Notes: a model not told the origin generated them from the letters alone. Counted from the first letter of the stretch, positions 40,372 through 46,631 are shown. The stretch is DNA of 64,000 nt from an uncultured delta proteobacterium (GCA_963807225.1 CAWEAD010000008.1:200586-264585), one strand, 5' to 3'. A program made the numbers and translations.

Positions 40372-41683
40372 ATGGGGCGCAAAATTTCCACGCCTGTTCA
40401 ACTTAGAGAATGGTGGCGTTTTGTTGTGCTGTTATTCAGCGCCATTGTCGCCACTCTTGTTTTCCGTCCCTGCGCCGCGATATTTCCGAAGAAGAAGGGT
40501 CGGGTGGCAATTCTTGGCCGAGAAAGTGGTTCTTTCAGCGACAATGCCAAACATTTTTTTTCTTCGCGCAAAAGTACCAAGGCGGATATTTCTCGGTTGC
40601 CTTTATTTCATCAAAAAAGAGTACAGTGGCAGAGCTGCGCGATCATTTTCTTTCCACTCTACACTATCCAGGTCTGCGAGCTATTTTTTGGCTGATCTCA
40701 GCTGAATTCGTGATCATGGATAGCGCCGAATGGATCAGCGGTGGCAAATACCAGCTGGCCGCTTCCGGTAAGCTGGTGCAGATCTGGCATGGTGCCCCGC
40801 TCAAGGAAATCGAGTTGCCCCTGCATCAACGCCGCCTGGCGAGGCTTGATTTTCTATCACGGCTGTTTCTGCAGTTCCAGAAAAAGATCACCGGCCGTTA
40901 CCCTGATCATTTCGCGGTTGTTTCTACCTCGAAATTTTTTACGAAACGGGCTTTTTCCTCGGCATTCCGGGCGAGTCATTATGTCGAGGCCGGATATTCC
41001 CGGAACGATGCCATCTTTGAGGGGCAAGGAGATTTGCCCCGGACTTCCCCCCTTTGGATAAATTGTGACCTGAAAGTCCTGACGTTTATCGATAAAGCCA
41101 GGAGTGAGCAGTTAAAGGTGATCTTTATGCCCCGACCTTCCGTTCCGATCACGGTTCTCCTTTTGTTGAGGGAATTCTTAATCTGCCGGCGCTCAACGCC
41201 TTTGCCTCGGCTAACGGTATTCTGCTAATCACCAAACTCCACCCGTTGATGGCCGACCAGGTGAGGGGGCGAGATTTTTCACATATCGTCAATTACGCTG
41301 CCGAATGTGACATCTATCCGGCCCTTGCCCTCTTTGATGCGCTGGTTACTGATTATTCCTCCATTTACTTTGATTATCTACTGCTTGATCGTCCGGTTTT
41401 CTTTTTCCCATACGATTTAGAGCATTACGTGGCGGGTGAGCGCAAGTTGCTGTTCGGCTACCGGGAGATGGCTCCAGGGCCGTTGTGTAGAACGCGGGAA
41501 GAGTTGCAGGCGGAAATACTCACTCCTGATAACGATTATTGGCGCAAGCGGCGCCGGGAAGTCCGTGCCAGCGTATTTGATCATCTCGATGATAAGGCCG
41601 GCTTGCGGTTGTACCAGTTCCTGCAGGAACAAAGTCTTGCCAGACATGAATCAACAATTGCGCAGTGCGGTAGTAATCCATGA
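40372..41683 (+). pseudogene. second CDP-glycerol glycerophosphotransferase (TagF-like), disrupted by at least two frameshifts
   Basis: Family motifs are split over three frames. Frame 1 has VAILGRESGSFSDNAKHFF. Frame 3 (after the T8 run at 40554-40561) has FISSKKSTVAELRD...KLVQIWHGAPLKEIE...GYSRNDAIF. Frame 2 from about 41124 has [13 protein letters not shown]... and [30 protein letters not shown]. Confidence 0.7.
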
Positions 41684-42686
41684 AAATTCTTAGTCCCATG
41701 GCCACCGGTAATGGTGCTTATATTGTCCATCAAGCCTTGGCGCGAAAGATAAAGGGATACCAATTACATGGTTACAACCCTTACTCAACCTTGTTCCCCC
41801 CCTGCCTTCCCTTGCTCACCCATGGAATGATGGCCGATATCGTCCATACTACCCCGGACTATGGCTTTTTTTTTGAGAAAAAAAATACCCCATTGGTATT
41901 AACTTTCCATAATTATTTTCTTGATCAGTTTATGATGGCCTATAGTTCTATGGCACAAAAGATTCATTATCGAACAGATCTCCGTCATTTCACCAGAAAA
42001 TCATTAACCATAGCTACGGTGGTCACTAGTGTCAGCAGGTTTACTGCCGATCTTGTACGCGACGATCTTGGATTCCGGGGCGAGATTAAGGTGATTTACA
42101 ATGGCGTTGATCAGGAAATGTTCCGACCTGAGGAAAGGTTGCCCCGGAAAAAAATCAGGGGGTACTGTTCAGTGGTAATCCGACCCGGCGTAAGGGGGCT
42201 GACACTCTGCCCCGGATTGCCCGGCGGCTTGATCCGGGGATTGAGATTGTCTGACAACTGGGGGGTTGCAGGCCAGGAGACACCTCGCCGACTCTACCGG
42301 AGTGCTGCGTGATATCGGGACCATCCCTTATCTGGAAATGCCCAGGGTCTATCAGGATGCGGATATCTTGTTGTTACCTACCGTCCGGGAAGGATTTGTA
42401 CTGGCGGCAATCGAGGCAATGGCCTGCGGTTTACCGGTTGTGGCAACCGATTGTTCCTCGCTCCAGGAATTAGTTGTCTACGGTAAAGGGGGGGTATTTA
42501 TGTAGATTGGCTGATGAGGCAGATTTCGCTGAAAAAATCAATTTGTTGGCCACCTCTCCTGAAGCCAGAAGGAGCATGGGGGGATTCAATCGTAACCGTG
42601 TTGAGGAGTCCTTCACTCTGGCGCAAATGATAGGAAAGTATCGGGAATTATTTGAAGAAGTAATGGCCTGTGGAAGGTTAAGTTGA
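41680..42686 (+). pseudogene. glycosyltransferase family 4, disrupted by three frameshifts
   Basis: One GT4 sequence is spread over four ORF pieces. Piece 1 is MKILSP...VIYNGVDQEMFRPEERLPRKKIR. Piece 2, in another frame, is GVLFSGNPTRRKGADTLPRIARRLDPGIEIV. Piece 3 is LTTGGLQARRHL...LLLPTVREGFVLAAIEAMACGLPVVATDCSSLQELVVYGKGG. Piece 4 is YLCRLADEADFAEKINLL...MIGKYRELFEEV. Shifts map to the A7/G5 run at 42148-42162, about 42249-42251, and the G7 run at 42488-42494. Confidence 0.75.
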
Positions 42687-42737
42687 GCTTGTGACCACCT
42701 CCTTAGCGCTAAGTCAGTTGTGCGACTGGCTCTTTGT

Positions 42738-43610
42738 TTAACGTGTCCGGTCATATCGCATCTGTGCAATCTGTTCCGATACCAGGCCGATCATGAATAT
42801 TATTACCGAGGCGGAAAAAAGTAGAGCTGACATGTTGGTGAAGCGATGTATGGTGAAGAAGGTGTACAAGTAGTAACCAAGCCCAATTGAAAAAAACATT
42901 GCACTTACCGGCAAGAAAATTCTCAACGGTGAAAAGAGGGTGGCGATCTTCGTGATGATCAGAAAGAATCTGCTCCCGTCTTGGATTACTTTGATTTTGC
43001 TCTTCCCCTGCCTTGACTTGACGGTGATAGGAACGTATTTAATGCTCCGGCCACTTCTCAGATAGGCCATGGTCAAGGTGGTGGGGTAGGAGAAGGTATT
43101 GGGCAGGAGGTAGATGAAAGACTCGACTGTATCTTTTTTCACCAACCGAAAGCCGCTGGTAAGATCCTCAATCTTGAACTTGGTAATGTAAGAGGCGAGA
43201 TTGTTGTAAATGAGATTGGCGATCCCCCGGTGCAGTGATGCTTGCCCCTTATTGTTTCTGGCACCCACCACCATATCGAAGCTGCCCTTGTATTCCAGCA
43301 GTTTACCGATCTCAGACGGATCGTGCTGACCGTCGGCATCCATCATAATGATCCAGTCCCCGGAGGCGCTCCGGAGTCCGGTTTTGATGGCGGCGCCGTT
43401 GCCCATATTGTACGGGTGGGGCCAGACATTGGCTCCGGCGTTCATGGCCGCCTTGATTGTCTCGTCATTGGATCCGTCATCGACCACCAGAACTTCATAA
43501 TCAGGATATAGTTCTTTGATCGAGGCGATGGTCTGCCCTATCGATGCCTCTTCGTTATAAGCCGGAAGAAGAACCGTGACTTCTGGGGTTGGCTGATCAG
43601 CTTTGCTCAT
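42738..43610 (-). CDS. polyprenyl-phosphate glycosyltransferase (GT2, GtrB/ArnC/DPM1-like) with two C-terminal TM helices
   Basis: VTVLLPAYNEEASIGQTIASI...VLVVDDGSNDET...IIMMDADGQHDP (DxD), plus C-terminal TM helices. ATG 43610 overlaps the upstream GT-C/TPR gene end by 14 nt. Confidence 0.8.
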   Translation of the reverse strand: MSKADQPTPEVTVLLPAYNEEASIGQTIASIKELYPDYEVLVVDDGSNDETIKAAMNAGANVWPHPYNMGNGAAIKTGLRSASGDWIIMMDADGQHDPSEIGKLLEYKGSFDMVVGARNNKGQASLHRGIANLIYNNLASYITKFKIEDLTSGFRLVKKDTVESFIYLLPNTFSYPTTLTMAYLRSGRSIKYVPITVKSRQGKSKIKVIQDGSRFFLIITKIATLFSPLRIFLPVSAMFFSIGLGYYLYTFFTIHRFTNMSALLFSASVIIFMIGLVSEQIAQMRYDRTR

Positions 43611-45984: not shown

Positions 45985-46051
45985 AATGATTTATTAGCGA
46001 AAAGCAGGAGATCAGTCCGCGGAAAACCTGGGTCGGACAGAGAATTATCAC

Positions 46052-46091
46052 AAAAAAAGACCGCTTCCCTTTTGCCAGGGAAGCGGTTTTT
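46052..46091. terminator. bidirectional intrinsic terminator downstream of the pilin gene
   Basis: ACCGCTTCCC-TTTTGCCA-GGGAAGCGGT perfect 10-bp stem (46060-46087), flanked by A7 (46052-46058) and T5 (46087-46091). This gives a U-tract on both strands. Confidence 0.75.
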
Positions 46092-46115
46092 CTTAAACAA
46101 CAATTGCTTTGGTGA

Positions 46116-46631
46116 CTAGGGCAATATTACTGAATGCCTAACTGATTGGCCAGAGTACCGTTCGGCTCCAGTTGATAATCTTGCCGTTGGTGGCATTGGG
46201 GGTGAAATGCAGGACGCCTGAGCCGCAGCATTCTGGCCGCCATTATCTGTATCGGCAAGTTTTTTCAGTTTATCGTTGGTTGAGTCGGAGGTCGAGAGTG
46301 ATAGTAAGTGATCCTGGCGGGGTAGCTTCGATCGTTGAGCGGGAATGAAAATAAGTGGTATCAGCATCCCCGGCGAAAGTTCTCGATCGTCTTGCCGGGA
46401 TAGAGGAGTTCCGTCTGGCATTTTATTCTGGGTGGCATAAAAGAGGCCGATATTGGTCTCGATCGAATGCAACCCCGGGAAGACCAGGGCGGTCAGACGG
46501 GATTTCTGAATGTAGGTCATGTAGGCCGGGATGGCCACGGCGGCCAGGATGCCGATGATCGCGACAACGATCATCAGCTCGATCAGGGTAAAACCTTTTT
46601 CCTTATTCTCTTTCCTCAGGTGCTTCAGCAT
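46116..46631 (-). CDS. pilA: type IV pilin (prepilin with class III signal); C-terminal domain possibly frame-disrupted
   Basis: [37 protein letters not shown] has the G-1/F+1/E+5 prepilin peptidase site. GGAGGAAAGAGTT precedes ATG 46631. After about residue 65 the annotated frame becomes low-complexity, while more pilin-like segments appear in the other two frames. Confidence 0.7.

Follow-up and report, generated by a model that had tools for sequence, protein, structure and literature searches.

Two merged strain alleles as the probable source of broken genes in the pilin-glycosylation island of a deposited 768-kb contig

Are genes that appear broken in a deposited contig also broken in the organism that carries them? 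This question is raised by a window of 64,000 nucleotides from an uncultured delta proteobacterium, in which four genes for surface structures, encoding a TagF-like enzyme, a GT4 glycosyltransferase, a membrane glycosyltransferase with a TPR domain (GT-C/TPR) and a type IV pilin, are seemingly pseudogenised. Taken at face value, the 768-kb source contig would be annotated as carrying a decaying or phase-variable pilin-glycosylation island. Caution is advised with such an annotation: comparison with other assemblies indicates that the organisms themselves most likely carry the four genes in intact form, and the frame disruptions are in all probability an assembly or consensus artefact from merged reads of two co-existing strains. 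This verdict is a strong inference, short of proof, since it builds on finished sequences.

Position and extent of the frame disruptions

When compared with intact copies of this locus, taken from the independent contig L002 for 40.3-45.55 kb and from the contig L001 beyond, the region from 40561 to 46345 of the window carries 39 indel events and two in-frame stops. The disruptions noticed in a sequence-only reading of the window are hence present in the deposited sequence, and they exceed its estimate of about 15 or more. The claim of that reading that the sequence outside this stretch is clean was borne out as well for about 7.9 kb of comparable sequence (against L002, L005 and L008), which contains no indel. 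The left part of the island (37013..40500), which serves as a clean control, is base-for-base identical to L002 with neither mismatches nor indels, and no indels were found in 34634-37042 compared to L005 or in 51374-53384 compared to L008. All genes of this left part, which has a GC content of 36-44%, are intact, among them a GT2 gene (37781-38788), a first TagF-like gene (38808-39980) and a cytidylyltransferase gene (39977-40369). The remaining window is tiled by long ORFs with family matches that are full-length where checked.

The damage begins in the second TagF-like CDP-glycerol glycerophosphotransferase gene (40372..41683, plus strand), which falls into three segments in frames 1>3>2 as judged by tblastn due to 1-bp deletions at ~40561 and ~41123, and which differs from L002 by a single substitution. 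The family profile PF04464 is found on both fragments (profile positions 55-175 and 251-365) and matches strongly to the intact 437-aa product of L002. In the adjoining GT4 gene (41680..42686, plus strand), the Pfam GT4/GT1 halves lie on separate fragments, and three frameshifting sites were mapped: an insertion of two bases in a G run (42158-59), a complex change of net +2 (42253-57) and a +1 change at ~42485. This gene has 13 private substitution columns, mostly adjacent doublets or one tight cluster, with a flat distribution over the codon positions (4/4/3). The private substitutions of both genes are evenly spread over the codon positions and include several swaps of adjacent bases such as TC/CT. 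The following GT2 gene (42738..43622, minus strand), encoding a polyprenol-phosphate glycosyltransferase-like enzyme, is intact, and its 294-aa product equals those of L001 and L002; all six nucleotide differences to L002 are in third codon positions and five of them show the base of a further contig, L003.

In the GT-C/TPR gene (43597..45984, minus strand) the TPR half (43597-~44900) is intact and the membrane half is broken by 18 indel events between 45006 and 45967 and by in-frame stops at 45857-45855 and 45799-45797. The spacer towards the pilin gene (45985..46126) shows seven indel events compared to L001. The pilin gene (46127..46631, minus strand) keeps its N-terminal 75 codons, including the methylation/cleavage motif and hydrophobic helix (PF07963 and TIGR02532 at residues 14-39, together with a PilA family match). 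Its C-terminal half passes through frames 2>1>2>1>0, as revealed when all six frames were compared with the unbroken pilins of L001, L003, L004 and P0121-P0123; the last 75 codons contain eight indel events, and one or more further frame changes lie near 46400, the right-hand end of the damage (~46400-46410) being placed by protein comparison only. The frame changes counted earlier for the four genes (about two, about three, at least seven and possibly five, in the order given) were recovered or surpassed, the GT2 gene and the TPR half are intact as had been described, and the gene identities were upheld by family and fold matches.

The lesions are graded along the stretch. Past 40500 the mismatches between the window and L002 climb steadily, reaching 30, 56 and 80 per 500 bp at 44.5, 45.0 and 45.5 kb, so that the damage is worst beside the shared right flank (46.4 kb), weakens with distance and is absent below 40.5 kb. 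The earlier description of many indels with few substitutions holds for 40.4-42.7 kb only, and fails for 44.7-46.35 kb, where substitutions compared to the intact allele amount to ~12.5%.

The 39 indels comprise 19 insertions and 20 deletions. Only four of them lie within homopolymers of three or more bases and none inside a tandem repeat, the sole TRF hit in 40-47 kb being a weak two-copy 12-mer (45511-45534). This bears on slipped-strand mispairing at simple repeats, which would make the genes phase-variable and which had been put forward as one source of the pattern. The locus resembles phase-variable contingency loci in that frameshifts fall into genes for surface structures, and one of them affects a run of G residues (42158-62; five in the window compared to three in L002). 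However, the frameshift sites here are devoid of repeat tracts, the longest tracts being far shorter than is typical for contingency loci, each gene carries many disruptions, and 18 independent frameshifts are needless for switching off a single gene. Slipped-strand switching is therefore unsupported and its probability is close to nil. Programmed frameshifting or recoding was considered too and dropped, as 39 insertions and deletions without a common motif are beyond what it could produce.

Intact versions of the genes in independent assemblies

A comparison with other assemblies of the same population, proposed earlier as a check, yielded intact ORFs where the window is broken. L002 (Logan, run ERR11594398) encodes the intact second TagF-like protein, an intact GT4 enzyme of 333 aa and a TPR protein of at least 650 aa, and L001 (assembly ERZ25039549) contains the GT-C/TPR gene as an intact frame of 794 aa. 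The lesions of the window are private to its assembly. The organism of the window is present in run ERR11594398, as contigs L002, L005 and L008 are 99.8-100% identical to it. In the flanks, L005 and L008 match the window at 99.8% identity without any indel over 4.4 kb, showing that the natural divergence between the populations is about 0.2% and does not involve indels. Assembly ERZ25039549, run ERR11594398 and the assembly of the window would all go back to one sample. Of the disrupted products, the GT4 fragment (210 aa) and the shifted pilin (171 aa) have database entries from a single contig, which is the 768-kb contig itself. Look-ups of exact products (the GT2 290-aa start, two starts of Memo, SerA, Prs and the shifted pilin) returned no contig of the same population, and none was obtained for 46.35-51.3 kb. 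Private errors of the same kinds are also present in L001, which has Flye-style naming, at other positions: TA is inserted at 39420, AG and GA are swapped at 40354-5, and bases are deleted at 40960 and 42574.

These data speak to a recent and genuine pseudogenisation, in which the pilin-glycosylation island would have fallen silent and gathered real indels and stops, perhaps following natural recombination with an L003-like allele. Loci for surface glycans and pilins differ among strains and frequently disappear, a single functional module contains all the lesions, the fragments are indeed encoded by the deposited assembly, and adjacent glycosyltransferase genes and a pilin gene each with multiple frameshifts and stops are what is seen in decaying surface-antigen islands. 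Unlike in such islands, the lesions are private to one assembly, graded towards the shared flank instead of uniform, and set in a hybrid of two alleles. The genes are intact in two independent assemblies of a population that is identical over 3.5 kb of the island, and the flanks differ from other assemblies by 0.2% with no indels. Bacterial pseudogenes typically show a deletion bias, which is not seen in the 19:20 ratio of insertions to deletions. Moreover, private indels (~26-39 over the stretch) outnumber private substitutions (7-18 in the 1.65-kb core described below), the reverse of natural decay, and swaps of adjacent bases are unusual as point mutations. Recent decay is thus disfavoured, and we regard it as decidedly unlikely.

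The core of the stretch is a hybrid of two alleles

The sequence between 44701 and 46350 forms a core in which informative sites agree with L001/L002 or else with L003, and few are private. L001 and L003 are separate short contigs of one assembly, ERZ25039549, and are ~32% divergent over this region. The window is L001-type at 317 sites, L003-type at 181 and private at 7, and the three sequences all differ at 11 sites. From 44.9 to 46.35 kb, 169 of the 187 differences between window and L001 show the base of L003, and L003-type bases reach as far as 42.9 kb, where nine of 16 differences match L003 (P ~1e-5). The in-frame TAG stop at 45857 illustrates how the two alleles are combined: L001 reads GAC TAC CAT TCC, L003 reads GAC AGC AGA TCC and the window reads GAC TAG CAT A TCC. 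Such mixing also extends to length, as the window has the length state of L003 at seven of the 20 indel sites of the core that differ from L001; the other 13 indel events are private, set against the 7-18 private substitutions.

Along the core the labels switch 162 times between L001-type and L003-type. Taken alone, these switches are no evidence of chimerism, since any three-sequence comparison interleaves private sites, and the argument is built instead on branch-length, four-point and shared-state tests. The three-point terminal branches are 12.5 sites for the window, 186.5 for L001 and 321.5 for L003; the private branch of the window is thereby only ~0.8% of sites, too ancestral under every rooting, and the split of private sites has P ~4e-45 if window and L001 are sister lineages evolving at equal rates. 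The four-point sums (714 / 769 / 930) are strongly non-tree-like. With L004 as fourth sequence, the window shares 88 states with L003 where L001 equals L004, 51 states with L001 where L003 equals L004 and none with L004 alone, and the two signals alternate in 51 runs. The observed distances of 12.5% (window-L001), 21.0% (window-L003) and 26.6% are close to the 11.5, 20.5 and 28.2% predicted for a 64:36 mixture. What argues for chimerism is the near-zero private branch, in combination with shared states that conflict and with private indels that are more numerous than private substitutions. A uniform mixture is too simple, since the rate of L003 states differs between two site classes (30% vs 51%). 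The fraction of L003-type sites shows only a modest correlation with how similar the two alleles are locally (Spearman -0.37, P = 0.035), and indels are not clustered at the L001/L003 switch points (42% observed vs 40% expected).

The same values have to be explained if the pilin/GT-C segment represents a genuine third allele, with real substitutions, in which errors are limited to the indels, i.e., to long-read consensus mistakes that escaped correction because polishing failed locally in a hypervariable multi-strain region. The substitutions of the GT-C gene are distributed over the codon positions as expected for purifying selection (48/24/83), related alleles exist (P0001/L003), and interleaved site labels are expected of any natural third sequence. 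However, an allele that is 12.5% distant from L001 and 21% from L003 should bring states of its own, which is at odds with the ~0.8% private branch; the 88 and 51 shared states conflict with each other, the four-point sums do not fit a tree, and the databases contain no protein more than 80% identical to the frame-corrected allele of the window. A third allele is therefore considered unlikely. The frameshifts would be artefacts under a third allele as well.

Alternatively, the window could be real DNA, a finely patched natural hybrid of two ~32%-divergent alleles generated, e.g., by heteroduplex repair after recombination. The pilin, its glycosyltransferase and the neighbouring sugar genes would have lost their function through frame clashes, making the locus a natural case in which recombination of divergent surface-antigen cassettes destroys the locus. 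A natural L001 x L003 recombinant would need ~160 parent switches in 1.65 kb. A hybrid of this kind is very improbable.

The merging of reads from two strains would account for the pattern as follows. The source community would contain at least two strains with common flanks (GT4 on the left; the pilin N-terminus, tRNA-Gln, Memo and cysS on the right) and a differing pilin-glycosylation island in between. Assembly ERZ25039549 kept both versions apart as L001 and L003, and the assembly of the window would have collapsed them into a single path, with reads from the second strain piling onto the allele of the first strain after anchoring in the common right flank. Consensus building or polishing may then have chosen the base or length state of either allele site by site. 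The outcome would be a hybrid found in neither strain, in which in-frame indel states are mixed and which contains hybrid codons and extra 1-2-bp indels, and the damage would end below 40.5 kb, where only one of the strains has this part of the island. The errors in the second TagF-like gene and in GT4 (40.5-42.7 kb) may have the same cause, e.g., second-strain reads with overhangs that were misaligned, or polishing that failed; no second allele or donor was found for the private changes in 40.5-42.7 kb, the GT4 genes of L003 and L004 being too distant and the nearest database GT4 being 68% identical. The ~32% divergence between L001 and L003 is high for the co-alignment of reads unless conserved flank and sub-blocks assist.

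Both parental haplotypes were found in what would be the source community, if the assemblies share one sample, and the mixture is site-wise with essentially no states of its own and with lesions that are absent from independent assemblies. The artefact proposed by the sequence-only reading is supported in this way; its cause is better described as site-wise blending of two co-occurring alleles than as low quality or low coverage. Collapse of strains into consensus contigs, accompanied by indel-driven frameshifts, is known for long-read metagenome assemblies made with Flye or Canu (Strainberry paper, PMC8302730), and the length of the 768-kb contig suggests that the window stems from an assembly of this kind. 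Like in collapsed-strain contigs, the window fits a mixture, here with both parental alleles recovered as separate contigs of one assembly. Unlike in the contigs described (PMC8302730), only 6 kb bordering a strain-variable island are damaged and the parental alleles are unusually divergent (~32%). Artefacts can hence be tested in a read-free manner by finding the alternative alleles elsewhere, checking for own states and comparing private indels with private substitutions.

A strain-variable pilin-glycosylation island

The underlying biology is ordinary. The locus, from a bacterium with Desulfobulbaceae-like relatives, is a strain-variable pilin-glycosylation island which consists of the pilin, the GT-C/TPR enzyme and GT2, followed by differing sugar or glycerol-phosphate genes, and which occurs in at least two versions in one community. 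The right border of the variable island is a tRNA-Gln(CTG) gene (46949..47022, minus strand), identified by ARAGORN and Rfam. Pilin glycosylation modules adjoin pilA in other bacteria, e.g., TfpO/TfpW in Pseudomonas aeruginosa. Similar to these modules, the island has a type IV pilin gene with the gene of a polytopic membrane glycosyltransferase directly behind it, as well as strain-variable sugar genes and an adjoining tRNA gene. Unlike in TfpO/TfpW modules, to which the island is likened by gene layout, the membrane enzyme has a long TPR domain and its partners are a DPM1-like GT2, GT4 enzymes and TagF/TagD-like glycerol-phosphate enzymes.

When the GT-C/TPR protein was searched against Pfam and PDB sequences, the TPR part alone was detected. 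In the species-representative genome collection, scans with this protein and with a 49-mer of the cytidylyltransferase gave no match. The relatives are proteins from MAGs of Desulfobulbaceae / Thermodesulfobacteriota (45-49% identity). The AlphaFold model of the family member P0008 (pLDDT 89.8, pTM 0.90) was compared to the PDB by Foldseek: the top eight matches are ArnT, Pmt4 and Pmt1/2, and STT3 was retrieved as well, with probabilities of 0.97-1.0 and weak E-values of 0.02-0.5. The membrane half of the 794-aa protein is accordingly predicted by the model to adopt a polytopic GT-C fold. A DD motif (VLDDFHSF), assumed to sit in the first loop near the N-terminus, is invariant or nearly so in 35-38 homologues; the window keeps ALDD, with the artefactual stop next to it.

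Frame disruptions within the low-GC island

The affected genes belong to an island of low GC content at ~37.1-46.7 kb (36-53% GC; flanks: 55-62% GC), both neighbours of which are housekeeping genes, i.e., methylmalonyl-CoA pathway genes, a propionate-CoA ligase gene and a GT4 gene on the left, and tRNA-Gln, a Memo-like gene, cysS and serA on the right. Its plus strand encodes a GT2 (37781-38788), a first TagF-like glycerophosphotransferase (38808-39980), a TagD-like cytidylyltransferase (39977-40369), a second TagF-like protein (TagF-2; 40372-41683) and a GT4 (41680-42686); a DPM1-like GT2 (42738-43622), a membrane and TPR protein (GT-C/TPR; 43597-45984) and a type IV pilin (46127-46631) are encoded on the minus strand. 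The pilin gene is followed on its right, after ~300 bp, by the tRNA-Gln(CTG) gene (46949-47022, minus strand), which lies at the border of the strain-variable island. Within the island the GC content is composite, with 36-44% over 37.1-40.37 kb (the first three genes) and 48-53% over 40.4-46.6 kb, and the error-free part coincides exactly with the part lowest in GC.

Using the intact GT2 of the window as an exact-product query, two independent contigs with the same locus were obtained, L001 (contig_78506 of the ENA assembly ERZ25039549) and L002 (Logan assembly of run ERR11594398). The GT-C/TPR protein is intact in L001 (794 aa), and in L002 TagF-2 (437 aa), GT4 (333 aa) and the TPR protein (at least 650 aa) are all intact. 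Compared to these contigs, TagF-2 of the window has two deletions of 1 bp each, and GT4 is frameshifted at three sites. The membrane half of the GT-C/TPR gene shows 18 indel events together with two in-frame stops; seven further events fall in the spacer between this gene and the pilin gene, and eight in the final 75 pilin codons, with at least one additional frame change of the pilin gene near 46400. The indel events total 39 and span 40561 to 46345. Not a single indel was found in the controls, i.e., 37013-40500, which is identical to L002 base for base, 34634-37042 compared to L005 and 51374-53384 compared to L008 (both same-population contigs of run ERR11594398), and long ORFs cover the remainder of the window. 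This confirms the sequence-only reading, according to which frame disruptions are confined to 40372-46440. The disrupted products are on record from a single contig only, the 768-kb one.

The damage follows a spatial gradient. The first isolated indels occur at 40561 and private changes become denser towards 42.6 kb; the DPM1-like GT2 gene and the TPR half differ by ~1%, with 6 of 6 differences in the GT2 gene at third codon positions, and from ~44.7 kb the mismatches per 500 bp rise from 30 to 56 and 80. Throughout, L001 and L002 are concordant with each other against the window. The original description of the disruptions as accompanied by few substitutions fails at 44.7-46.35 kb, with a difference of 12.5% between the window and L001.

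Hybrid composition of the window

For the membrane half of the GT-C/TPR protein, neither Pfam nor PDB gave a sequence match. The structure model of a family member is confident (pLDDT 89.8) and has ArnT, Pmt4, Pmt1/2 and STT3 as best structural matches; since, moreover, the N-terminal DD motif is invariant across the family, the label GT-C/TPR is reasonable. With the frame-corrected membrane domain as query, no protein of >80% identity was found. The best match, P0001, is located on L003 (contig_84329), which belongs to the same assembly as L001. On this contig the pilin, GT-C/TPR and GT2 genes are present in another version, ~32% divergent, and are followed by two unrelated GT4 genes in place of the TagF/TagD-like genes.

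At 44.9-46.35 kb the window has the L003 base at 169 of the 187 sites at which it differs from L001. Over 44701-46350, 317 sites are private to L003, 181 to L001 and seven to the window, and 11 differ in all three. Interleaving of L001-type and L003-type sites, taken alone, proves nothing, as it is seen with any third sequence. The terminal branches, 12.5 sites for the window, 186.5 for L001 and 321.5 for L003 (equal-rate split probability ~4e-45), show that the window is too "ancestral" by far to be a living allele, whichever root is chosen. When L004, a contig with a related pilin locus, is added to the comparison, the states shared by the window number 88 with L003 and 51 with L001, and there is none that it has in common with L004 only; both signals interleave in 51 runs, and the four-point sums (714, 769 and 930) are strongly non-tree-like. 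All distances fit a 64:36 site-wise mixture, which predicts 11.5, 20.5 and 28.2% (arithmetic on the observed values), compared to 12.5, 21.0 and 26.6% observed. The L003 length state is present at 7 of 20 indel sites, and the in-frame TAG stop at 45857-45855 (L001: TAC CAT; L003: AGC AGA; window: TAG CAT A) is a hybrid codon with one extra base. L003-type traces reach 42.9 kb, where the homology of L001 and L003 ends and 9 of 16 differences match L003 (P ~1e-5). If it is a hybrid of these two parents, the window requires ~160 parent switches in 1.65 kb, a number that is not credible for natural recombination.

Errors versus mutations

The flanks differ from the ERR11594398 population by ~0.2% substitutions without indels, which is taken as the natural divergence level. 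In the core (44701-46350), 13 of the 20 indel events relative to L001 are private to the window, a number similar to or exceeding its private substitutions (7-18), and TagF-2 has two indels and one substitution. Real gene decay would give the opposite ratio. Moreover, the 39 events comprise 19 insertions and 20 deletions, only four lie in homopolymers of at least three bases and none in a tandem repeat; this balance disfavors deletion-biased decay, and these counts exclude slipped-strand switching, which the sequence-only reading had considered as well. The private substitutions in GT4 and TagF-2 are spread evenly across codon positions and several are adjacent swaps, which is a consensus-error pattern. 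Merging of strains into consensus contigs and frameshifts caused by indels have both been described for long-read metagenome assemblers (PMC8302730).

L001 itself has ~10 private errors at window-equivalent positions 39104-42690, among them +TA at 39420, an adjacent GA/AG swap at 40354-5 and 1-bp deletions at 40960 and 42574, which split TagF-1, TagF-2 and GT4. They are of the same kinds as those of the window at other positions. The Flye-style name points to long reads as the source of L001, in which case lesions of this kind do arise when this population is assembled from long reads. The GT-C/TPR gene of L003 is also broken, into three pieces (257 + 101 + 388 aa), and in L004 a scaffold gap, visible as a short N run at ~1900-1930 (XXXX in translation), lies inside the pilin gene.

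Proposed origin and the underlying island

L001, L002 and L003 all terminate at the island borders, as is typical of a bubble in the assembly graph that is enclosed by shared flanks. From sequence identity we infer a common source sample for ERZ25039549, ERR11594398 and the assembly of the window. The window probably represents a blended consensus of the two strain alleles. The shared right flank would have served as anchor for reads from the L003-type strain, these would have been stacked on the L001-type path, and both states would have been mixed at the consensus step. Such a pile-up would explain why the damage is worst beside the shared flank and fades with distance, and why 37.1-40.4 kb, low in GC and unique to one strain, is perfect. 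Against such a blend, the two alleles are very far apart for their reads to co-align, the share of L003 states varies between site classes (30% versus 51%) and indels are not enriched at parent-switch points. The search for a donor allele was negative for 40.5-42.7 kb, and the cause there is less certain; misaligned overhangs of second-strain reads or a local polishing failure could account for it. That the frame disruptions are not real, a wider claim than the blended consensus, is very probable. The sequence-only observation is correct, and what it recorded is very probably an assembly artefact. The strain-variable pilin-glycosylation island underneath is real but ordinary.

The order Memo-like, pilin and membrane/TPR gene also occurs in L004 (511-6861) and in two further contigs with related pilin loci, L006 (373-2812) and L007 (727-2301), at ~77% nucleotide identity, and in L004 it extends into a DPM1-like GT2 and a GT4. 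This recurrence points to a pilin-glycosylation module that is conserved, with sugar genes downstream of it that vary. Elsewhere in the window, 870 bp at 2261-3132 lack an ORF of at least 90 aa, a tRNA and an Rfam family match, with locally low GC content (44.7% in 2001-3000). The methylmalonyl-CoA pathway cluster at 24156-35377 (minus strand), comprising succinyl-CoA ligase subunits, a B12-binding mutase subunit, an epimerase-like glyoxalase, a biotin carrier, an OAD gamma-like subunit and propionate-CoA ligase, is compatible with Desulfobulbus-type propionate metabolism.
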